DNA from: Candidatus Marinacidobacterales bacterium
GTDB taxonomy: Bacteria; Acidobacteriota; Vicinamibacteria; Marinacidobacterales; SMYC01
Length of the DNA stretch: 64,000 bases
Assembly: GCA_965250115.1 (NCBI GenBank)
Contig: CBDFNJ010000002.1
Span: 270,966-334,965, forward strand
Direction of reading: 5' to 3'
The translations under genes and the position numbers were made by a program. A model generated the notes under the pieces. The model was not told where the DNA came from. It saw only the letters and a list, made by a program, of their open reading frames with translations, and searched no databases. Below, in pieces: positions 7,206 to 53,765 of this stretch. Numbering within the stretch: position 1 is the stretch's first letter; each line of letters begins with the position of its first letter.

Positions 7206-7799
7206 ATGCACATCGGTCGACACATCGTTCAGAAGTTGGTGCTCGAGTTCGGTGAGCCCGAAGTCGAGCGATGGGATGTCGCTCTGACGAAACCCGAGCT
7301 GGACGTGGTGTTGAAACATCGGGGGCTCGGACGCGCCCATGACATTAGCCTGCTCATTTTGGACGGCGATCGCATCGCCGTGATTCGCAAGCCGGGCTAT
7401 CCCGAGGGCGGCTATCGAATTCCGTCCGGAGGTATCCATCCTGAGGAGTCCTTCGTTGACGGCGCGACCCGGGAAGCTCTGGAAGAGACCGGCCTCACGG
7501 TCAGGATCGAGGATTATCTCTTGCAGGTTCACGTGACGTTCAGCTGCGGCGACGAGAGCGCGAAATGGACCACGCACGTCATGTTGGCTCATCCCGTGGC
7601 TGGCCACCTCGAGCCCCTCGATACCGCGGAAATAGAAGGAGCCCGGTGGGTCGACTGGGTCGAGCTCACGGAGCGCCTCAACCCCGTGCTCGTGGGCGCT
7701 GAGGGCGGTGGCCTGAAGTACCGCGCACGGCTCCATCAGAGGCTTCGCGAGCTCGTTCACCAGATTAGCGGATCGAGTCGGGCCCCTTCGTCTTCTTGA
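7206..7799 (+). CDS. NUDIX hydrolase
   Basis: NUDIX box in GGIHPEESFVDGATREALEETGL. The stop overlaps the start of the next gene at 7796. Confidence 0.75.
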   Translation: MHIGRHIVQKLVLEFGEPEVERWDVALTKPELDVVLKHRGLGRAHDISLLILDGDRIAVIRKPGYPEGGYRIPSGGIHPEESFVDGATREALEETGLTVRIEDYLLQVHVTFSCGDESAKWTTHVMLAHPVAGHLEPLDTAEIEGARWVDWVELTERLNPVLVGAEGGGLKYRARLHQRLRELVHQISGSSRAPSSS

Positions 7800-9026
7800 G
7801 GCGGAAAGGCGAGGGGCTCGTCGAGGGCAAGATGTCGCCAGCTTCCGATCTTCGTCGCGCCGAGCGACTTCGTCGTTCCGGCAAGCTCGACAAGGCCATC
7901 GAGCTCGTACGCGGAGCGCTCGCGCAGGACGGCCTGGACTTCGAGGCGCGCCACAAGCTCGCCGAGTTCCTCTTGGAGTCGGGCAACAGGGACGGAGCGA
8001 TCTCGGAATACGTGAAGCTCCAGGAGTTTCTGACAGCCGAGGGCGACCTCCTCGGCGCCATCGCTTGTGGCCTCAAAGTCGTCGAGCTCGATCCCAAGTT
8101 CGACAATCCGCTCGCCTATGTAGCCAAAGTCAAAGTCGAGAGCCTGCGAGAAGAGCAAAAGCGCAAAGCCGCGGAGACCGTTCCCATTCGCCCCATCACG
8201 CCTCTCGACGACATCCCGCTACTGTCTGAACTGACGCCGGAGGAGCTCGCAAGTGTCGCCGGGACCATGCAACGGCACGAGTATCAGGACGGCGACGTCA
8301 TCTTTTCGGAGGGCGACGCGGGCTCCTCGCTCTATTTCGTGAACCGGGGGGCTCCTGGAGGTCAAGGCCGAAAGTAGCAAGCTCAGTGTGGTGAAGCAGG
8401 GTCAGTGCTTCGGCGAGTTCTCTTTCCTGACCGGCCAGCCGAGAACCGCGAGCGTACGCGCGATCGACGCCAGCGAGCTTCTCGAGCTCTCAGCGGCAGG
8501 CATGAGGGGCGCGGTCGAAAACCACCCCCGACTCAGGGACGTCCTCTTTTCGATGTATCGGGAGCGCGCCCTCGTCAACGTCTTGTCGCTCTCGCCTCTT
8601 TTTCAAGTGCTGCCCTCGAAGGATCGCGCGAGACTCGCGCCGCGGTTCAAACTCGTGACGTTAAGGCGGGGCGATGCGGTGTTCCAGGAAGGTGAGCAAG
8701 GTGGTGCCCTCTATCTGATCAAGGACGGTGCCATGGAGGTACGGGCCACCATCGATGGCTACTCCCTGCGTCTCGCGACGCTGACGAAGCATCAGTTCTT
8801 CGGGGAAGTCTCGTTTCTCACCGGTGTCCCGCGCACGGCGACCATCCACGCGCTGGAGGATTCGGAGCTGATGAAAATCGAGGAGGGCGAGCTGCGCGAG
8901 CTCCTCCGCCATCATCCTTACATGAAGGAGGTTCTGTCGCGGTATCACCTTGATCGGGTGACGGCGACGGCGGAGACGCTTAAAGCTTTTATGAAGAGCG
9001 ATCGGGTCGAGGGTATCGTCAGCTGA
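7796..9026 (+). CDS. Helical (TPR-like) N-domain plus two tandem cyclic-nucleotide-binding domains. The reading frame is broken at a G6 run (8346..8351), either a frameshift or a sequencing error. The track splits this gene into 7796..8377 and 8388..9026.
   Basis: The first cNMP domain begins DGDVIFSEGDAGSSLYFVNRG and then frame-shifts. Removing one G restores ...LLEVKAESSKLSVVKQGQCFGEFSFLTGQPRTASVRA. The second cNMP domain is intact (RGDAVFQEGEQGGALYLIKDGAMEV...FGEVSFLTGVPRTATIHA). Confidence 0.7.
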
Positions 9027-42708: not shown

Positions 42709-44547
42709 CTACATGCTCGGGAGCTCCAGATTGAGCTTGACCTTCTTGCCTCCGCTCTCGAGCACGGTGATGGGATGACTGCCATCGACGCGCAGCGAGC
42801 GTCTCGCTTCGTCGAGGGAGTAGTTATTTGCGGGTTTTCCATCGAGCTCGACGATAATCTGACCTCGTTTGAGGCCGGCGAAATAGGCGGGGGAGTTCGA
42901 CTTGACCTCATGCACTCGGAACCGCTCTGTGGTCTGCGGGTCGGCAGTGATGCTCAAACCGCTGCGGAAACGTCTCTCGAGGTCTTTCTTGTCGGCGGAA
43001 TGGGCGAGAGCTTCCTTTAGCTCGATCTTGCGACCCTCGACCATCTCGGCGAGGACGTCGTTGAGAAGCTGCATGCCCCCGGCCCGATTTGTCTGGATGA
43101 TGCTGGGAATCTGCACCGTCTTGGCTTCTCGGACGAGGTTCGCGATCGCGTGGTTCACCACCATGATCTCCAGAGCAGCGACGCGACCACCTTCTTTCCT
43201 CTTCACCAGCGTCTGAGTGATGACACCGCGAAGGACGTCTGACAATACGCTTCGGATCTGTGCCTGTTCGTTGGCCGGAAACTGATCGACGATGCGATCG
43301 ACGGTAGAGACGGCGGAGTTGGTGTGCAAGGTCGCGAAGACGAGGTGGCCGGTATTGGCCGTCTCCAGCGCCAATGAGATCGTCTCGAGGTCCCGCATCT
43401 CGCCGACGAGTACGATGTCGGGGTCTTCCCGCAAGGCTGACTTCGGGCCGCGGGCGAAGCTCTTGGTATGTCCGCCGATCTCACGCTGGTTTACGAGGCA
43501 CTGGTCGCTTCGGTGCAGGAACTCGATCGGATCTTCGAGCGTGATGATGTGGCTCTTGCGGGTCTTATTGATGTAGTCGACCATCGAGGCGAGGGTCGTC
43601 GACTTTCCGCAGCCGGTCGGTCCGGTCAGGAGAACCAGACCTTTCGGAATCTCGCAGAGCTGCTTGACGACTTCCGGCAGGCCAAGCTGCTCGATGGTCA
43701 GAATCTGCGACGGGATCTGCCGAAACGCGGCGCCGACTCCGTTGTGATCCCGATACATGTTCACGCGAAACCGGGCCACTTCGGGAACCATATAGGCGAA
43801 GTCCGCGTCGCTCGTATTCACGAACTCGTCGCGATGCCGTTCGGTGAGGACGGGCTTTATGAGCTCGAAAACCTGTTGAGTCCCGAGCACGGGTCCATCC
43901 GTCACCTCTTGCATGTCGCCGTTGATGCGCCAGCGGGGCCTGTGATGCGCGCACAAGTGCAAGTCCGATGCACCTTCTGCGACCATTTGTTTCAGCAGCT
44001 CGTCGAGCTCCGGCGAGCGCGGCTTGTCCTTTTCGGCCTCGGCGAGACCCTGGGGAATTGCGTGAAGTCCGGAGTGCGTCTGCATCACGTCGTTGAAGAA
44101 GGGCAGATCAGTACGAACGGTATTGAGCTCCATGCTAGGGACGTGCTGTCGGACGGCGCTCACGACGCTCGTCGAGGGGTCATCGACCACTCCAAGCGTC
44201 AGAACGTTGCCGTCGACCTCGAGCGGCAGGACACGATGTCGCTGGCAGAATTCTTTGGGCAGGAGCCGGAGAACCTCCGCTTCGGGCGAGCCCTTGCGCA
44301 TGTCGTACTGGGGAAGCGGGATTTGAACCGAGACTTCGTCCAGCCGGTGTGCGAGCCCCTGGGAAAGACCGAGGCCGAACTTCGGGATCTTCTGGAACAT
44401 CGTGTCGAAACCCTTGGAGCTGAATTTGAGGGCGGTGAGGTCGGTAAGCGCCACGACCGAGGCGGTGCGCTTTTTTCCGAGAAGAAGGTGCCTTGGTGCA
44501 CAACTCCGATAGAGGCCGATAGCTCGCTTGGCCCCGACTCCCATCAT
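42709..44547 (-). CDS. PilT/GspE-family secretion/twitching ATPase with a C-terminal PDZ domain; only the last part of an N-terminal cNMP-binding domain remains (5' end apparently truncated by the IS5 insertion)
   Basis: Walker A LLTGPTGCGKSTT; Asp/His boxes; PilT-type GEMRD. C-terminal NSPAYFAGLKRGQIIVELDG (PDZ). The N-terminus begins mid-domain (TASVVALTDLTALKF, the end of a cNMP-binding fold). Confidence 0.75.
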   Translation of the reverse strand: MMGVGAKRAIGLYRSCAPRHLLLGKKRTASVVALTDLTALKFSSKGFDTMFQKIPKFGLGLSQGLAHRLDEVSVQIPLPQYDMRKGSPEAEVLRLLPKEFCQRHRVLPLEVDGNVLTLGVVDDPSTSVVSAVRQHVPSMELNTVRTDLPFFNDVMQTHSGLHAIPQGLAEAEKDKPRSPELDELLKQMVAEGASDLHLCAHHRPRWRINGDMQEVTDGPVLGTQQVFELIKPVLTERHRDEFVNTSDADFAYMVPEVARFRVNMYRDHNGVGAAFRQIPSQILTIEQLGLPEVVKQLCEIPKGLVLLTGPTGCGKSTTLASMVDYINKTRKSHIITLEDPIEFLHRSDQCLVNQREIGGHTKSFARGPKSALREDPDIVLVGEMRDLETISLALETANTGHLVFATLHTNSAVSTVDRIVDQFPANEQAQIRSVLSDVLRGVITQTLVKRKEGGRVAALEIMVVNHAIANLVREAKTVQIPSIIQTNRAGGMQLLNDVLAEMVEGRKIELKEALAHSADKKDLERRFRSGLSITADPQTTERFRVHEVKSNSPAYFAGLKRGQIIVELDGKPANNYSLDEARRSLRVDGSHPITVLESGGKKVKLNLELPSM

Positions 44548-45509
44548 CCGATCATCTCGCTATCAGGCATCCCGAGCGCCGTCATGGTGTTCAGAATCTT
44601 GCACCCGATCCTTGCCTCGACTCTCTGTGCCGCCAACCCTCTCGCTCGCATCGCTGAGCCCACGATAGCCTTGTAGCGATGGAACGTTGTCTCGACTTTG
44701 CTCCGGTTGCTGTAGCCCGATTCTGTGTGCCACTTTCGTTTGCCGAGCCGAGCTTGTGCTGCAATGTTGCGATTGCGCTGTCGGCTGCTCGCCGGCCCCG
44801 ATGCGAGCTGGGCGCCCTTGCGCGGCGGTATCAGCACCCTCGGCGAGCGATGAGCGCTGTGATTCTCGATCGCCTCATAGACGCCGCTGGCGTCGTATGC
44901 GGTGTCAGCTCTGGCCGATGAGATGGGACTGTCGATCTGTGCGACAAGCGATGCAACCCGCGATGAATCGCGGGCTCTTTTGCTCGTCAGCTCGCCGGCG
45001 ACGACTTCGCCACTCTGCTCGTCGACACACAGATGGAGCTTGCGATAGTCCCTGCTCTTTGGTGCTCTGCGCAGCTGGCCGGCGTGGACAGCGAGACCGC
45101 TGCTGTCGATCAAGGTGTGCAACGGCGTCTTCTGCTTGTCTTGGTAGAAGGGGACCTTACCCAGCTTCGCCTTGCGCCTCGAAATCGTGGTGTGATCGGG
45201 CACATCATTGTCTAGCTTCATCAGAGCGAACAACGATCGCAGCAATCCCTCGCTCTGCCTAGATGACAGATGAAACACCATGCCCAGGGTGACAGCCGTC
45301 TCGATGGCGTGGTTCGAGTACTTGCGTTGACGGCCCGGTTTCCTCCTCCTCGGCCGGGGCGCGTCCCAGTTCACAAGCTTGCCGGCGGTGAGCGAGATCC
45401 AGACGGTCAGGCTCCCACGGTTGCGTAGACCCGCCTCATATTCACGCCAATTCCTCACGCGATAGGCCTTCTTCACATACTTCCGCTGAGTGCGTTTGAA
45501 AATGCTCAT
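44544..45509 (-). CDS. IS5-family DDE transposase
   Basis: YRVRNWREYEAGLRNRGSLTVWI N-terminal signature; DDE core; 321 aa. Element boundaries not resolved. Confidence 0.85.
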   Translation of the reverse strand: MSIFKRTQRKYVKKAYRVRNWREYEAGLRNRGSLTVWISLTAGKLVNWDAPRPRRRKPGRQRKYSNHAIETAVTLGMVFHLSSRQSEGLLRSLFALMKLDNDVPDHTTISRRKAKLGKVPFYQDKQKTPLHTLIDSSGLAVHAGQLRRAPKSRDYRKLHLCVDEQSGEVVAGELTSKRARDSSRVASLVAQIDSPISSARADTAYDASGVYEAIENHSAHRSPRVLIPPRKGAQLASGPASSRQRNRNIAAQARLGKRKWHTESGYSNRSKVETTFHRYKAIVGSAMRARGLAAQRVEARIGCKILNTMTALGMPDSEMIG

Positions 45510-45562
45510 GGGGAACCTCGAATCCGTGAGTACAGGACAATTGTGGACCGAGATCGCGAGTT

Positions 45563-46771
45563 GTGCACCAAGGCAACGTTGAGCTGGAAGTCTACGAGCT
45601 GTTGGAGCAGGTCGACAATCTAAGACAGCGAGCCAAGGTGCAGGCGGCGATCATCGGGTTACTCGTGCGTGTGTTGGGGTTCCGCGGGGGAAAACTCGAC
45701 GGCGATCGCCTTCCGGATGGTGAGACCAAGTCGGCGGTGCTCCGGGCGATCGCGTCGGCGACTGGTGTTCTGTCGTTAAGCACCGTGCTCAGAATCGTGG
45801 GCGTCTCGACGGCGCGTTATCACGCGTGGAGGCGCAAGGAAGACGGCTGCGGACTCGACGATCAACCGAGCTGTCCGAAGTCCTTCCCCAGCCAGCTCAC
45901 GCGCGACGAAGTCTCCACGATGAGAGATTTCGTCGAGTCCGAGAGCTATCGCCACATCGCCGTCCAGAACTTAGCGCTTTACGCGCAGCGGCTTGGCAAG
46001 CTCTTCGCCTCGGCAAGTACGTGGTACAAGATGATCCGCAGGCGCGGGTGGAAACGTCCTCGAAGGCGGGTGCATCCGGCGAAGCCCAAGACAGGCCTCA
46101 GGGCGACACGCCCCAACGAGTACTGGCAAATCGACGCGACCGTGATCCGGCTGACGACCGGCATCCGAATCTATCTGCAGGCGGTCATCGATAATTTCAG
46201 CCGAAGAATTCTTGCCTGGCGGGTGAGCGACACGCTGCGCTCGGCAACCACCCGGGAGCTCCTCATCGAGGCGTCAAAGGGCCTTCCGGACGACTCAGCG
46301 ACCGCGAACGTACTTGTCGTCACCGACGGCGGTTCGGAGAACTTTGGCGAGGTCGACCAGCTGCTCCTGGATTCAAGTTCTCTGCATCGTGTGCTCGCGC
46401 AGATCGACATCATCTCCTCGAACTCCTTGATCGAGGCGTTCTGGCGACAATTGAAACACGCGTGGCTCTTCCTGAACACCCTCGACAGTGCGGCGGCGGT
46501 GCGGCGTCTCGTCGCGTTCTACGTGCGTGAGCACAATGAAAAGATCCCGCGCACCGTTCTCGGAGGTCGTACGCCGGATGAGGTGTACTTCGGCCGCGAG
46601 GAGAATGTGCCGGATCGGCTCTCCGAGCAACGCAAGACAGCGCAGCGGGTCAGGAGCGCGGCAAATCGAGCAGCGAACTGCCATCGCTGCGAATCCTCAC
46701 GCGCTGGCCCTGCTGTCCGGAGTGCCGCCAGGCCAGGGGCTCGTCGAAAACCTACTCGGAAATCTGCATGA
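45563..46771 (+). CDS. rve (integrase-core) DDE transposase, IS481/IS3-like; the C-terminal tail is probably read-through
   Basis: WQIDATVIRLTTG...YLQAVIDNFSRRILAWRV (DD) ... EAFWRQLK...HNEKIPRTVLGGRTPDEV (rve C-terminus). Confidence 0.75.
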   Translation: MHQGNVELEVYELLEQVDNLRQRAKVQAAIIGLLVRVLGFRGGKLDGDRLPDGETKSAVLRAIASATGVLSLSTVLRIVGVSTARYHAWRRKEDGCGLDDQPSCPKSFPSQLTRDEVSTMRDFVESESYRHIAVQNLALYAQRLGKLFASASTWYKMIRRRGWKRPRRRVHPAKPKTGLRATRPNEYWQIDATVIRLTTGIRIYLQAVIDNFSRRILAWRVSDTLRSATTRELLIEASKGLPDDSATANVLVVTDGGSENFGEVDQLLLDSSSLHRVLAQIDIISSNSLIEAFWRQLKHAWLFLNTLDSAAAVRRLVAFYVREHNEKIPRTVLGGRTPDEVYFGREENVPDRLSEQRKTAQRVRSAANRAANCHRCESSRAGPAVRSAARPGARRKPTRKSA

Positions 46772-47094
46772 TGTTTGTGTGAGCAGCACAGCTACCAGGG
46801 TGTTGACGCAGAGGCGTCCTGCGACATCTTGGAAAAGCAATGGTTTTGTGAGTGCGAGCCCAGTCGCGAGTACTGCACGACTCCGATCTCGTACGACACG
46901 TCAAGCTTAACGAACGACCTAAGAGAGCCGTAGATGCTTGGCGGGCTGGAAGGGACGGGAGAAGTTGAGAGGGAGTCAAGAAACGAAACACGTTCCCGCA
47001 CACTTCCCGCACGATCTGCCCCGATACGGGCCACTACTCAAGAAGCCAGCAGCTCTCTTGACGGCGTAACTCTTTTGGATGGGAAATTTGGAAA

Positions 47095-47171
<77 letters not shown>

Positions 47172-48509: not shown

Positions 48510-49476
48510 TCAGCCGATGCGGTCGACGTCCGTTCGAGGCGGCTCGTCCGGCTCGCTCGGTCGATAAATCTCCGATGCGAGATGCTCGAGTTTCTTAGCG
48601 TCCTCATCGGTGTCGGCCACGAAGGCAACGCCTACATGATACCTCGCATCCTCGCTGCTGGCCTCTTCGAGCCGGACAACTCGGCCTCTCAAGAAGACGT
48701 TCTGGTGCTCCTGAGGAAGGTGGATGTCGATTTCGAGCTCGGTTCCCACGTTGAAGGGGATCTGGCTCTCCACGAGCGCACCGTTCCTCGAGAGATTACG
48801 GGCCTGGCTTCGTAGCTCGCGGCGTTCGTCTTGCCGGTGCTCCCGGAAGACGAGAACATTTCTCGCATCGAGGCGCGGCGATCGGCGTTTCTCCTCGGCG
48901 TGAAGCGTGATCTTGTTCTTGCCCTCGTGCCTCGATCTATAGAGCGCCAGGTCTGCCATGCGCACGAGTCCTTCCGCGGAGTTCGAGTCGGCGGGATAGA
49001 GGGCGATGCCTCCGCTCACCGATAGCGAGACGTGTGCGTTAGCGACGAGCTCGCTTGAGCTCCCGCCTCAGGCTGACGTCGAAGAACTGGCGATTGTAGA
49101 GGCTCGTCAGCCCGTCGGTGATGGCGCTTCTCTCGGTCTTGAGATAGGTGGCCATTTCGATGAGCTTCGGATTGCGAAGCTCTGGCTTCGAGGTCTGGAA
49201 ATAGTCGAGCGCGGCGAGCTGTAACGTCGCCTCTCGTCCCAGCTTGGACGTCAGCGCCTCGCGGTGTTTCAGGATCGCTCGAAAGTGCCCACGAGCGACG
49301 GGCTCCCGGTACTCGAGCTGGGTGAGCAGGCGGACGAGCGCAGCGAAAGAGATCGTGTCGGAGCCCAAGAGCTCATCCAGATCCGCCCCAGGAGAGTTGC
49401 CCGCTTTTTCGAGCAGCCGTACCAAATGCTGCCGGGTATCCCCCCGCGTCGGCAGCGATGACATAAGCGCCTCCAA
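48510..49476 (-). pseudogene. N-domain–GGDEF–PilZ protein lacking the GGDEF catalytic core. The two ORFs (49039..49476 and 48510..49019) are in different frames and about 100 residues of the domain are missing.
   Basis: The upstream ORF ends at the GGDEF N-terminus (ITDGLTSLYNRQFFDVSLRRELKRARR*). The downstream ORF begins at the GGDEF C-terminus (SGGIALYPADS...MADLALYRSRHEGKNKI), followed by PilZ (RRSPRLDARNVLVF...GRVVRLEE). Confidence 0.6.
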
Positions 49477-50113: not shown

Positions 50114-51485
50114 GTGAGTTTGCTCTTGACCCCCTGGAGTCTTGCCCTGGTCTTCGCGGCGGGGACGCGCGTCCTCGTGATGCCGTTCGAGAACCTCTCG
50201 GACGATGCGTGCACGATTGGAAGGGAAGTGCCTTCGAGGAGGCAATCTCGTCCCATCTCGAGGCGGCGGGCCATGAGGTCGTGGACGTTCAGACGCGCAA
50301 CCGCCATCTCGTCAATCAAGGTTTCGATCCAGCGCAGCCCGTGACGCGGGCGACCGCCATCTCGTCAATCAAGGTTTCGATCCAGCGCAGCCCGTGACGC
50401 GGGCGACCGCCATCGTGCTCGCGCGAGACCTCCGGGCGGGTCGGCTCGTTGTCGGCAGCTTTCAGTCGAGTGAGGATCGGCTCCAAGCCACGGCGCGCGT
50501 CGTCGATCTGTCGGAAGGGGTAACGATTGGAGTCGTCGAGGACTTCGCGAAACGCGATGAGCTCACGAGCCTCGCCAATCAGATCGCGAAGAACATATTC
50601 CGACTCGAGCGGGACCGGGTGCCCACGGGATTCGACGAGAGCGTCGAGAGGCGCGCGAAGCTCGCGCCGGCCGCTCTCGAGGCGAGCGCCCACGCGCGTC
50701 TGAGCATCGAGCGAGACGAGCAGCGAGAACACCTCGAACAAGCCGTTGCTATCGAGCCTCGTTACCTCGAAGCCCGTGTCATGTTGGGAAGCCTCTTGCT
50801 CGAGGAGGGCAAGGCGAGGGAAGCGATCGACGTGCTCGTTGCAGCAAGAGACGGTGGTGGGAGTGACGCGAAAGCGTACTTCGGTCTCGGTGTCGCCTAC
50901 CTTTCCGTCGGTGAGCCCACGGCAGCTTACGAGATCTTTCAGAATTTGACCGAGCTCGATGACAAAAGAGCCGCAGCCCACAACAATCTCGGCGTGGCCG
51001 CCATGCGGTTGGGCTTGCTGGATGAATCCATCAAGGCCTTCGAGTGCGCCGTCGAGCGCGGCGGCGTTGGAGCGAGCTACTTTTTCAACCTGGGCTTCGC
51101 GTCGTGGCGGGCAGGCAAGGGTGCTCGGGCGCTCGAGCTCTTCGAAAAAGTGGCGGAGGCGCGTCCTTTGGACGGTGAAGCTTACTTCATGCTCGCGGCG
51201 GCGGCGGCGTCCCAGGCGGAGCCCGAAAAAGCAGAAACGATGCACGCCACATCCTTGCTGCTCTCTCCCAACCTGGCCGATGTGGATGCCGCGACGGTCG
51301 AGGGGTGGGAGCGCGTGGTTTTCGCGGAGGAGGAGAGTCGCGATATCGACTCGGTGGTAGCGCTCGAGGAGGACGTCGCCGCTTTGGTGGAGATTCTCGA
51401 TGCTCGCGAGTACCGCGCGACGGGCCGACTCGATGACGCGGTCTTGTTGCTTCAAAAGAGGGTCTACGCGGATTCGTGTGGGTAA
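50114..51485 (+). pseudogene. TolB_N-like domain + TPR-repeat protein, disrupted three ways: a frameshift near 50204..50216, a 53-bp tandem duplication at 50301..50406, and interruption of the 3' end by the ISL3-type element. The C-terminal remainder is at about 53460..53731.
   Basis: Frame 1: signal peptide plus VLVMPFENLSDDA. Frame 2: WKGSAFEEAISSHLEAAGHEVVD. Frame 3: ...IVLARDLRAGRLVVGSFQSSEDRLQATARVVDLSEGVTIG, then the TPR repeats. Downstream of the IS the frame continues ...ELADVLQEAGELDRAATELAIVLWNEP.... Confidence 0.6.
50301..50406. repeat. 53-bp perfect tandem duplication (2 units) inside the TolB_N/TPR gene
   Basis: ccgccatctcgtcaatcaaggtttcgatccagcgcagcccgtgacgcgggcga appears twice; 53 is not a multiple of 3. 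Confidence 0.9.
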
Positions 51486-52018
51486 GTTCTGACGGAAAAA
51501 CAGTGTAACTCATTGTGTGGAAAAGGTATCGAGTACTTCATCAGGTGCTGAAAAGTGGTCCATTTTTAGGATAGGCTAACCGAGTGAAAAATTCCCAGTC
51601 GATCCGCTCGCTGTTTGCGCTGCCAGGTTTCGTGGTGTGCCGGATTGAAGGGTCTATTCGGTGACCGATACGCCCGCGTCATCCAGCTCAAGAGGCGAAA
51701 AAAACAGCTGTGTGCTCTTACTGTGGGCAACGATGCCGGGGGCGCTATGACAAGCAAGTGTGCCGGGTCCGCGACCTGTCGTTGGCAGGCTGGCGGATCT
51801 ATCTGGAATACGAGCGTTGGCGCGTCAACTGTCCTGGGTGCGGCGGTTTGCATGTAGAACACCTGGACTGGCTGGCGAACAACTCGCGCTACACCTAGCG
51901 TTTTGCGACGCATGTGGGCAAGCTGTGCCGGACAAGGCGGTGGCCGAGATGGAACGTCTGACCCTGCCCGGGTTTTGTGGACACCAACCGAGGCGCGACA
52001 ATGCGCCTGGAGGCGTCC

Positions 52019-52315
52019 ATGGGAAAGCGACGACGAAGGAAGTTCACGGGGGAGTTCAAGAAGGAAGCGGTCCGGCTGTTCAAAGCGGGCGAGCGCAGCA
52101 TCGGCCAGGTCGCTAAGGAACTGGACCTGACGGAATCAGCCCTTCGAAACTGGGTGAAACAATACGAGGTTGATCACGGTGAAGGTCCACGCGAGGCTCT
52201 GACGACGGCGGAACGTGATGAGCTCCGTTCGCTGCGACGTCGAGTACGCACGTTGGAGCAAGAGCGAGAAATATTAAAAAAGGCGGCGGCCTTCTTCGCG
52301 AAGGAAAGCGAATGA
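52019..52315 (+). CDS. IS3-family transposase OrfA (HTH plus leucine zipper)
   Basis: MGKRRRRKFTGEFKKEAVRLFKAGERSIGQVAKELDLTESALRNWVKQY... Confidence 0.85.
   Translation: MGKRRRRKFTGEFKKEAVRLFKAGERSIGQVAKELDLTESALRNWVKQYEVDHGEGPREALTTAERDELRSLRRRVRTLEQEREILKKAAAFFAKESE
52272..52278 (+). promoter_or_regulatory. Programmed -1 ribosomal frameshift heptamer A_AAA_AAG joining orfA and orfB
   Basis: tt A AAA AAG gc in the orfA frame. The -1 frame continues KKGGGLLREGKRMRFKFIHAER..., which is OrfB. Confidence 0.7.
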
Positions 52316-53167
52316 GATTCAAGTTCATTCACGCGGAGCGGGCCAACTATCCGGTGCGGGTGATGTGCCGAGTCCTGAGGGTATCGACCAGAGGCTACTA
52401 CGCTCAGATGAAGCGCGCGCCCAGCAGGCGACAGTGTGAGGATGGGAAGCTGAAGCTGCGCATCCAAGCGATCCACGCCCATAGCCGTGGTACCTACGGC
52501 AGGGAGCGTGTACGTCGCCAGCTTGACGGGGAGAACGTCGAGGTGGGCAAGCAGCGAGTGGCACGGCTGATGCGTGAGATGGGCCTGCAGGGCCTGCCCA
52601 GCAAGCGTTTTCGCCGCACGACCGACAGCAAGCACGATCGCCCTATCGCGCCCAACGTGCTCGGCCGGCACTTCGAAGCCGAACGAGCGAACCAGTTCTG
52701 GGTGACGGACATAACCTTCATCCGGACTTGGGAAGGCTGGCTCTACTTGGCGGTCATCCTCGATCTGTTCTCGCGTCGTGTCGTCGGCTGGGCGATGCAG
52801 TCCCACCTGCGCGCAGAGCTTGCTCTCGAGGCGCTTCACATGGCCTTGGGGCGCCATCTGCCTGGAAGTGGCTTGGTGCATCATTCAGACCGTGGTACTC
52901 AATACGCGGCTGCGTCTTACCAGGCCGTGCTCGATGAGCCGCAAGGGTAATTGCTGGGACAACGCCGTGAGCGAAAGCTTCTTCGGTACGCTCAAGACCG
53001 AGCTCGTCAACCGGCGGAGCTGGCCAACCCGGCGGAGCGCCAAAGACGCCGTCGCCAGCTACATCGAAGGCTTCTACAACCCGCATCGACTTCACTCGTC
53101 GCTCGGCTACGTGAGCCCGATGCTGTTCGAGCAATTACACGCTCTTAAATCTGCTGATGCGAGATGA
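52312..53167 (+). pseudogene. IS3-family transposase OrfB (rve DDE core) with an internal frame break near 52927..52950
   Basis: ...HSDRGTQYAAASYQAVLDEPQG* in one frame and CSMSRKGNCWDNAVSESFFGTLKTE... in another. The 13-nt stretch gtgctcgatgagc is read in both frames, consistent with a deletion between short direct repeats. Confidence 0.7.
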
Positions 53168-53765
53168 TCAACCCGTCCACTTTTCCCGGGCAAGGTCACC
53201 TGGACTGGCTGGCGAACAACTCGCGCTACACCTAGCGTTTTGCGACGCATGTGGGCAAGCTGTGCCGGACAAGGCGGTGGCCGAGATGGAACGTCTGCGC
53301 CTCCTAGTTGAAGGGGTCAACAACAAAATCCGTGTGCTGCAACGACGCGCCTACGGCTATCGCGACGAGGAATATCTCAAGCTGAAGATCGTGGCGGCAT
53401 TCCTTCCGCCATTACCCAGAAATGCCGTCTTCAACCCACACGAATCCGCGTAGACCCTCAAAAGAGTCTGTATCGGGATCCGAGCGCGAATGAGCTCAGG
53501 CGAGAGCTTGCGGATGTGCTCCAGGAGGCGGGGGAGCTCGACCGGGCGGCCACCGAGCTTGCCATCGTCTTGTGGAACGAGCCGACGTGTGATGCCCACG
53601 TGGAACTGGCTCAGATCTTCGTCGAGCTGGACGAGCCGGGCAGAGCTCGTGAGCAAATCGAGATGGCGCTCGCGCCCGATCACGGCGGGGCTTTGTTGCT
53701 TAGCGACGCCTTACCGGTCGCGGTGCCGTAGTAGCACTTCCGCCCTTTCCATGTCTTGAGCTAGG

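Follow-up and report, generated by a model that had tools for sequence, protein, structure and literature searches.

We consider it probable that the open reading frame (ORF) 42709..44547, on the minus strand of a 64,000-nucleotide stretch of DNA from Candidatus Marinacidobacterales bacterium (assembly GCA_965250115.1, contig CBDFNJ010000002.1; the whole stretch is called the window below), is the remnant of a motor ATPase that was cut by an IS5-family insertion sequence (IS) and is now probably a pseudogene. The intact protein would have combined an N-terminal cyclic mononucleotide (cNMP)-binding domain (CNB), an N1-type subdomain, a PilT-type ATPase core and a C-terminal PDZ domain, and the family to which it belongs is likely of the retraction type and gated by cyclic AMP (cAMP) or cyclic GMP (cGMP). 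Coordinates of all features are given in Table 1.

Profile searches assigned several domains to the window protein. The core was matched by T2SSE of Pfam at amino acids (aa) 171-462 (E = 1.7e-47, 162.3 bits vs. a cut-off of 24.9) and by the PilT/PilU model TIGR01420 of NCBIfam at aa 181-522 (E = 6.7e-137, 456.3 vs. 319.1 bits), and the protein spans the whole of the latter model (positions 2-343 of 343). Upstream of the core, MshEN (Pfam PF05157) matched aa 79-133 (E = 3.9e-9, 36.8 vs. 23.1 bits), limited to profile positions 4-58 of 90, and the tail was recognised both by PDZ_6 (Pfam; aa 545-595, E = 9.6e-8, 32.1 vs. 27 bits) and by PDZ (Pfam; aa 525-587, E = 3.1e-5, 24.7 vs. 23.2 bits). At the N-terminus cNMP_binding (Pfam PF00027) stayed below threshold (aa 20-53, E = 0.019, 15.3 vs. 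27.5 bits) and covered profile positions 55-88 of 89 only. Full-length orthologues carry an intact cNMP domain and thereby confirm that this weak match is, as judged by alignment, a true domain remnant. A complete beta-barrel with a G-E...R-[TS]-A cassette is absent from the window copy, in which the GE half is deleted.

The scans thus bear out the four-domain order (cNMP remnant, N1, PilT, PDZ) that the first-pass annotation had read from the letters, and the motifs it quoted, Walker A GPTGCGKST, DPDIVLVGEMRD, TGHLVFATLHTN and a PDZ string inside aa 542-570, are present where it had placed them. Its label of a PilT/GspE-family core held for PilT, as the TIGR01420 score shows, and failed for GspE. 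A GspE identity was rejected with 151.8 bits for TIGR02533 (cut-off 630) and a PilB identity with 160.4 bits for TIGR02538 (cut-off 676). Since the equivalog models for PilB, GspE, DotB, TraJ and ComGA all scored far under their cut-offs on the window protein, the core is classified by its sequence as PilT-type and not as GspE/PilB. The layout, as had been claimed, is not that of a canonical PilT, PilB or GspE: instead of the two-domain PilT arrangement (N2 and C-terminal domain, CTD, only; ~345-400 aa), the full-length protein has ~687 aa with the CNB, N1-type and PDZ parts added.

The suspected loss of the 5' end is real and can be traced to the IS5 junction. The 20 N-terminal residues of the ORF, MMGVGAKRAIGLYRSCAPRH, are encoded by the end of the IS5 element and do not belong to the gene. 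Native sequence sets in with LLLGKKRTASV at window residue 21, the equivalent of orthologue residue 96. The element is bounded by perfect 18-nt inverted repeats, TGCCTTGGTGCACAACTC, of which the window holds these two copies only (0.01 expected); its other flank is another IS, so a target-site duplication is not assessable. An intact gene of 687 aa was found on a 5.87-Mb contig (L007) of a 'Candidatus Marinacidobacterales' metagenome-assembled genome (MAG). This contig and the window are 96.2% identical in DNA from 44488 down to 36258 (blastn), whereas L007 DNA upstream of its position 8285, with a divergent PrsW-like protease, a VanZ-like protein and a fatty-acid desaturase, had no match in the window. 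The breakpoint therefore lies inside the gene and the present upstream context of the window copy (tRNA-Met, coaBC beyond it on the upstream side, and a GGDEF-PilZ gene) is secondary. When the N-termini of P0001 and P0002 (both introduced below) were used in tblastn searches for the missing 5' part elsewhere in the 64-kb window, it was not found, and the searches returned only the retained part and an unrelated cNMP gene at ~8.4-8.9 kb.

The same lesion is present in three independently assembled ENA contigs (L001-L003, 470-850 kb, ~99.6% identical to the window), which share the IS5/IS3 arrangement and the upstream context but retain 80 bp more of the gene, so that their product (P0001, 624 aa) begins at orthologue residue 67. 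The IS5 element accordingly abuts codon 67 in the lineage and codon 96 in the window genome, owing to an 80-bp adjacent deletion, and it is this extra loss that removes the G-E half of the binding cassette. The window copy is left without promoter, start codon, 95 codons, the CNB beta-barrel and the Gly-Glu half of the cassette, and therefore it cannot sense a cNMP.

What the gene was before it was cut can be read from its relatives. A search over 5.8 billion proteins returned at least 120 clusters of orthologues at 56-89% identity, with Vicinamibacteria/Acidobacteriota MAGs as the named sources; where databases name these proteins, they do so only as 'PilT/PilU family type 4a pilus ATPase', an automatic annotation, or as 'twitching motility protein PilT'. 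Among the 120 best clusters nearly all full-length members measure 683-717 aa, typically ~687 aa, and every one of them carries PF00027, PF00437 (T2SSE) and a PDZ family, with PF05157 in nearly all, which confirms the expectation that full-length orthologues have an intact cNMP domain. The closest intact match, P0002 (89% identity to the window protein), has cNMP_binding at aa 43-128 (E = 1.6e-17, 63.6 bits), MshEN at aa 153-212, T2SSE at aa 247-551 and PDZ_6 at aa 620-670. The cassette G-E-x-G-L-L-L-x-x-x-R-[TS]-A-[ST]-V is kept at 90% or more, as are Walker A, Asp box, Walker B and His box, both in 60 PDZ-bearing sequences and in 181 family members. The RTASV part of the cassette resembles both the HCN (cAMP) and the PKG/CNG (cGMP) types. 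To judge from the domains, direct gating of a retraction-type ATPase by cAMP or cGMP appears likely at the level of the family; the annotation's proposal of a cNMP-regulated motor is thus reasonable for the family and fails for the window copy, which has lost its sensor.

A functional MshEN domain is defined by two 24-residue RLGxx(L/V/I)(L/V/I)xxG(L/V/I)(L/V/I)... motifs that bind cyclic di-GMP (c-di-GMP) (PMC11656802). A c-di-GMP-binding MshEN reading of the mid-domain was rejected, as a regular expression for the motif core gave no hit in 195 family sequences. The region that had been called GSPII_E-like is thus only the C-terminal alpha/beta subdomain of N1/MshEN; the stretch preceding it is the CNB C-helix. 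By sequence, the messenger pocket of the family is accordingly placed in the CNB domain. Among solved structures the mid-domain matched the PilB N-terminal domain 7lko (residues 75-137) and a GSPII domain of Thermus PilF, and it shows an alpha-beta-beta-alpha-beta-alpha pattern with the N1-type signature 'LP.E....H.VLPL...GN.L.LG..DP'.

An AlphaFold2 (AF2) model of P0002, built with a 60-sequence alignment, had a mean predicted local distance difference test score (pLDDT) of 82.9, with values below 50 only at 235-248, the linker that joins the N1-type subdomain to the PilT N2 domain. Residues 606-684 adopt the strand/helix pattern of a PDZ domain at a block-mean pLDDT of 80-90. In Foldseek the core of the model was placed on PilT4/PilT with a template-modelling (TM) score, normalised to the target, of 0.87-0.91 and 48-54% identity. 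The top 50 for the whole model were PilT/GspE-type chains only, and for this reason the accessory domains were judged by sequence searches. These aligned the P0002 core to Pseudomonas aeruginosa PilT (3jvu) with E = 4e-111, the CNB domain to those of PKA-R and PKG at ~1e-16, and the tail to DegP PDZ1 at 2.3e-6; the tail also matched the PDZ domains present in an RseP homologue and in CtpA. The loop before beta-B of the PDZ domain reads R-F-R-V; it is conserved and fits the x-Phi-x-Phi pattern.

Compared with known systems the family is closest to PilT in its core (P. aeruginosa, 3JVU/3JVV; PilT4 of Geobacter metallireducens, 6OJX), with which it shares Walker A, Asp box, Walker B and His box and a score above the TIGR01420 cut-off. 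Unlike PilT, a protein of ~345-370 aa with no accessory domains, it adds ~250 N-terminal residues (CNB and N1) and ~80 C-terminal residues (PDZ). PilU, a PilT paralogue and accessory retraction ATPase, is more distant, since the identity to P. aeruginosa PilU is only 38% as compared with 51-54% to PilT, and PilU has neither a PDZ nor a CNB domain. The C-terminus of PilU contacts PilT and these contacts are needed for PilT-PilU coordination (bioRxiv 10.1101/2025.10.30.685630); the PilU element in this motor-to-motor contact is a precedent for C-terminal additions that act in motor coordination. With GspE/EpsE, whose N1E domain has been seen bound to GspL (4PHT), the family shares an N1-type mid-domain (Foldseek aligns 474 model columns to GspE-GspL chains), whereas the remainder is PilT-like and no GspL/PilM-like partner gene is adjacent. 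The extension ATPases MshE (V. cholerae) and PilB (M. xanthus, C. perfringens) are controlled by c-di-GMP via MshEN (PMC11656802). Like these, the family has a second-messenger receptor fused N-terminally to a motor of the T2SSE superfamily and shares the C-terminal N1/MshEN subdomain, but its pocket is a CNB domain (cAMP/cGMP) instead of the four-helix c-di-GMP site of MshEN, and its motor is PilT-type (retraction) and not PilB-type (extension). With PKA-R, PKG, Epac, CRP and MloK1/HCN it has in common the phosphate-binding cassette Gly-Glu ... Arg-Thr/Ser-Ala, and it differs from these regulators in having a PilT-type hexameric ATPase as its output module. In the papers searched, control of type IV pili by cAMP has been described as transcriptional, via Vfr/CRP, and not through a fused sensor (PMC11656802).

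A working model for the intact family can be drawn from its domain order and conserved ligand residues, together with the known behaviour of CNB domains in PKA, Epac, CRP and HCN. Binding of cAMP or cGMP to the N-terminal CNB domain would move its C-terminal hinge/lid helices (P0002 ~119-147), which run straight into the N1-type subdomain, itself connected to the PilT N2 domain by a flexible linker of ~15-25 residues. The helix movement may lift an inhibitory contact on the hexamer or put one in place, or alter which of its interfaces are open and which are closed; alternatively it may change how the motor docks on a platform or alignment protein. GspE uses its N1 subdomain to bind the cytoplasmic domain of GspL; in the present family N1 is probably what attaches the motor to a partner resembling PilM/GspL or PilC. 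The PDZ domain, which would have been acquired once in the Vicinamibacteria clade, probably clamps the C-terminal tail of a partner protein. The full proposal, that proteins with CNB-N1-PilT, with or without PDZ, are retraction motors switched directly by cAMP or cGMP and that the PDZ domain of the Vicinamibacteria members captures the tail of a motor, platform or alignment partner, is tentative, and in our judgement somewhat less probable than not.

The family extends beyond its PDZ-tailed members. In an exhaustive HMMER search of 1.84 billion cluster representatives many proteins of ~590-650 aa aligned to P0002 residues 12-602 in one stretch. These relatives, of ~610 aa, have CNB, N1 and PilT without PDZ, as Pfam scans confirm in five of them, and those with a name trace to Myxococcota-type MAGs (Archangium, Myxococcales and 'Deltaproteobacteria'). 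In a neighbour-joining tree of the region shared by a sample of 181 full-length members the 120 PDZ-tailed proteins formed one pure clade. Presence of the PDZ domain thus requires one Fitch change on this tree, which fits a single gain or a single loss. Scanning of GTDB species representatives with two family-specific peptide patterns gave at least 24 loci, a lower bound set by exact matching, and all but one were in Acidobacteriota/Vicinamibacteria. The architecture had been called unusual. It is indeed non-canonical, but with at least 120 clusters in databases it is not rare; by these searches it belongs to a large, conserved, lineage-specific family that is already in public databases under a generic name. 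We found no description of the cNMP, PilT and PDZ combination in the literature searched, although papers in subscription journals were mostly outside this search and absence is not proof. We infer that the family is an uncharacterised second-messenger-sensing motor ATPase of the type IV filament superfamily.

Ten long PilT-core representatives were also scanned, and among them were five cNMP-N1-PilT proteins, three with tandem cores and two with extended N-termini. The tandem-core proteins have two T2SSE cores per chain and 740-1020 aa (the P0136, P0140, P0148, P0166 and P0168 group), and the same group includes PilT cores with N-terminal extensions of 330-460 residues that match no Pfam family. 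PilT cores with extra domains are thus not unique to the cNMP-N1-PilT-PDZ family.

The partner machine cannot be read from the neighbourhood, as the ATPase gene is an orphan. Gene content within 8-10 kb was read in 11 loci (the window with L001-L003, L004, L006, L007, the P0340 locus, and the Myxococcota-type loci L031 and L032), and the coupling to pili, secretion or competence that the annotation had suggested was not borne out. What we found here weighs against a pilus motor under cNMP control: none of the 11 loci has pil, gsp, tad or nucleotide-cyclase genes in that range, clustering of ORFs over ~26 loci including GTDB genomes (a coarse screen, as the crude caller sometimes chose antisense frames in high-GC DNA) gave no neighbour shared by the whole family, and the AIRNLIRE motif of PilT reads A[IV]ANLIRE family-wide and AIANLVRE in the window, with the Arg at position 3 changed to Ala. 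In P. aeruginosa AIRNLIRE is required for PilT function. Synteny is local to clades only: a PrsW-like protease gene lies upstream, and methyltransferase-RF3-BON follow downstream. Seven Vicinamibacteria-type loci, L007 (6940..7668, minus strand), L006, L010, L011, L012, L014 and L017, have the gene of this PrsW-family intramembrane protease as a conserved divergent neighbour upstream of the intact ATPase gene; the window lacks it. At the P0340 locus (Myxococcales MAG, ENA ERZ1305449; no PDZ), a divergent gene directly upstream of the ATPase gene encodes a 381-aa cNMP_binding protein, and adjoining it are a Ser/Thr kinase, a PP2C phosphatase and a two-component pair.

Possibly, then, the family is not a pilus motor and the PilT-fold ATPase serves another cNMP-controlled process without a PilC-type platform, for which PDZ and N1 would supply new partners. 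The orphan position in every locus read and the replaced Arg point in this direction, as does the variety of long PilT-core proteins described above, which suggests functional diversification. We nevertheless think this unlikely, because the core shares 48-54% identity with bona fide retraction ATPases and scores well above the TIGR01420 cut-off. Orphan status is in addition weak evidence, since in well-studied bacteria pilT and pilU often lie apart from the other pil operons. A retraction-type motor hence remains our preferred reading of the intact family.

As for the remnant itself, the window copy is most likely a young pseudogene, to judge from the pattern of its codon differences. Over 593 retained codons it differs from L004 by 210 synonymous and 65 non-synonymous codons, a ratio that indicates strong purifying selection in the past of the family. 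Compared with L001-L003 there are three non-synonymous and no synonymous differences in the gene; if the ratio of non-synonymous to synonymous rates (dN/dS) were ~0.1, three out of three would have a probability of ~1% by a rough estimate, and under neutrality it is unremarkable. One of the three places Pro at codon 368, where all 60 sequences of the family alignment have Leu, in FARG-L-KSALREDPD just before Walker B. The makeshift starts differ as well, with an ATG that overlaps the stop codon of the transposase (ATGA) in the window and a TTG in L001-L003. Some observations tell against a pseudogene or make the case for it less firm. The 3:0 count is very small. The assemblies appear to come from long reads, and frame breaks occur in other window genes, so that some of the differences may be sequencing errors. 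The frame of the remnant is open over 592 codons in four assemblies, which says little at ~0.3% divergence. A sigma-70-type scan, which may not suit Acidobacteriota, gave no promoter-like site upstream of the remnant on the coding (minus) strand, a result that is weak either way.

The main alternative to a pseudogene is a sensor-less product coupled to the transposase, i.e. a truncated gene that still functions, is expressed by read-through or translational coupling from the transposase gene and is kept by the lineage as a constitutively active or inactive PilT-like ATPase. Translation would start at the overlapping ATG. The uninterrupted run of 592 native codons in the window and L001-L003 and the in-frame position of this ATG would be in line with such a product, and all ATPase motifs and the PDZ domain are intact in the window copy. 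Removal of an autoinhibitory CNB domain activates some CNB-regulated proteins, as is established for Epac and PKG. However, with the strains only ~0.3-0.4% apart in DNA the frame should be open even if no selection acts, none of the three differences in the gene is synonymous, and one of them is the change to Pro from a Leu of the ATPase core that is invariant in the 60-sequence alignment. The different makeshift starts, the loss of a further 80 bp and the lack of a promoter-like site likewise speak against a maintained function, and we hold it to be improbable that the remnant is functional. That the truncation is an artefact of the assembly, in which a repeated IS copy gave rise to a chimeric join while the real genome has an intact gene, is very unlikely indeed, for although other lesions that set the window apart from near-identical assemblies (a cNMP/TPR gene split in two, a 255-bp GGDEF-PilZ deletion and a 2-kb IS3 insertion) are compatible with an error-prone long-read assembly, the same IS5/gene junction and upstream context recur in the three contigs L001-L003 from different ENA analyses, and the perfect inverted repeats lie exactly at the junction.

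Table 1. Features of the ORF 42709..44547 and of the DNA upstream of it (window positions)
Feature	Position	Strand	Remarks
ORF as called	42709..44547	-	612 aa; first 20 codons come from the IS, in frame with the 3' 592 gene codons
Authentic gene remnant	42709..44487	-	residues 96-687 of full-length orthologues; orthologue alignment, blastn vs. L007
cNMP-binding domain remnant	44389..44487	-	second half of phosphate-binding cassette and last strands; PF00027, orthologue alignment
RTASV of cNMP remnant	44455..44469	-	
Hinge/lid helices of cNMP remnant	continue to ~44330	-	
GspE/PilB N1-type (MshEN C-terminal) alpha/beta subdomain	44149..44313	-	Pfam MshEN; without c-di-GMP motif
PilT-type ATPase core (N2 + CTD)	42982..44007	-	TIGR01420, structure matches
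Walker A GPTGCGKST	43597..43623	-	aa 309-317
Asp box LEDPIEF	43519..43539	-	
Codon 368, Pro in window	43444..43446	-	Leu in L001-L003 and in 60/60 aligned family sequences
Walker B DPDIVLVGEMRD	43390..43425	-	aa 375-386
His box TGHLVFATLHTN	43318..43353	-	aa 399-410
AIANLVRE (counterpart of PilT AIRNLIRE)	43126..43149	-	
C-terminal PDZ domain	42763..42975	-	PDZ_6, PDZ, DegP PDZ1 match, AF2 pattern in P0002
IS5-family insertion sequence	44489..45575	-	1087 bp; perfect 18-nt terminal inverted repeats at 44489-44506 and 45558-45575
IS5 transposase ORF	44544..45509	-	NF033579, 238.7 vs. 140 bits
IS3/IS481-like transposase gene	45563..46771	+	5' end cut by IS5 element; 45576..46771 outside that element
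tRNA-Met (CAT)	47095..47171	-	present upstream neighbour, not ancestral context

Next to the IS5 element, the IS3/IS481-like gene was matched by NF033516 with 116.9 bits (cut-off 160; model positions 64-368) and by rve at 2e-11; the gene lies ~320 bp from tRNA-Met, and its right boundary falls somewhere in 46772-47094. A further IS3-family element was found in a window-specific insertion of ~2 kb (51461..53457), with orfA at 51977..52315 (HTH_Tnp_1) and orfB at 52312..52950 (HTH_21 and rve). The insertion breaks up a TPR-repeat gene, which L001/L002 have as one ORF of 519 aa. With the IS5 and IS3/IS481-like copies at 44.5-46.8 kb also counted, the genome is shown to be IS-active. The GGDEF-PilZ gene (48510..49476, minus strand) has lost ~255 bp near 49040-49050, so that it is called as two ORFs and the GGDEF part is largely gone, whereas it is intact with 406 aa in the near-identical contigs L001/L002. 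The gene at 7796..9026 (plus strand), to which the annotation had also ascribed cNMP-binding domains, does have them (E = 4e-30 for ORF 8388..9026). It encodes TPR repeats followed by two cNMP_binding domains and is split into ORFs 7796..8377 and 8388..9026, either by a frame break in the assembly or by a real lesion.

The window copy is of less consequence than the family, as it represents a recent IS-driven gene loss in an IS-rich genome and, by accident, a natural sensor-deleted allele. Acidobacteriota (Vicinamibacteria) and Myxococcota-type lineages are common in soil and little studied. If the proposed gating is correct, cyclic mononucleotides would act on pilus dynamics through the family by a direct, fast and post-translational path, the cyclic-mononucleotide counterpart of the c-di-GMP control of MshE/PilB, and on a type IV filament motor neither a fused cNMP sensor nor a PDZ domain would have been described before. 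A PDZ domain is unusual on a cytoplasmic motor ATPase and offers a handle for finding the partner of this motor. Piliation and surface behaviour of soil Acidobacteriota and of Myxococcota-type MAG lineages would then respond to cNMP at the post-translational level.

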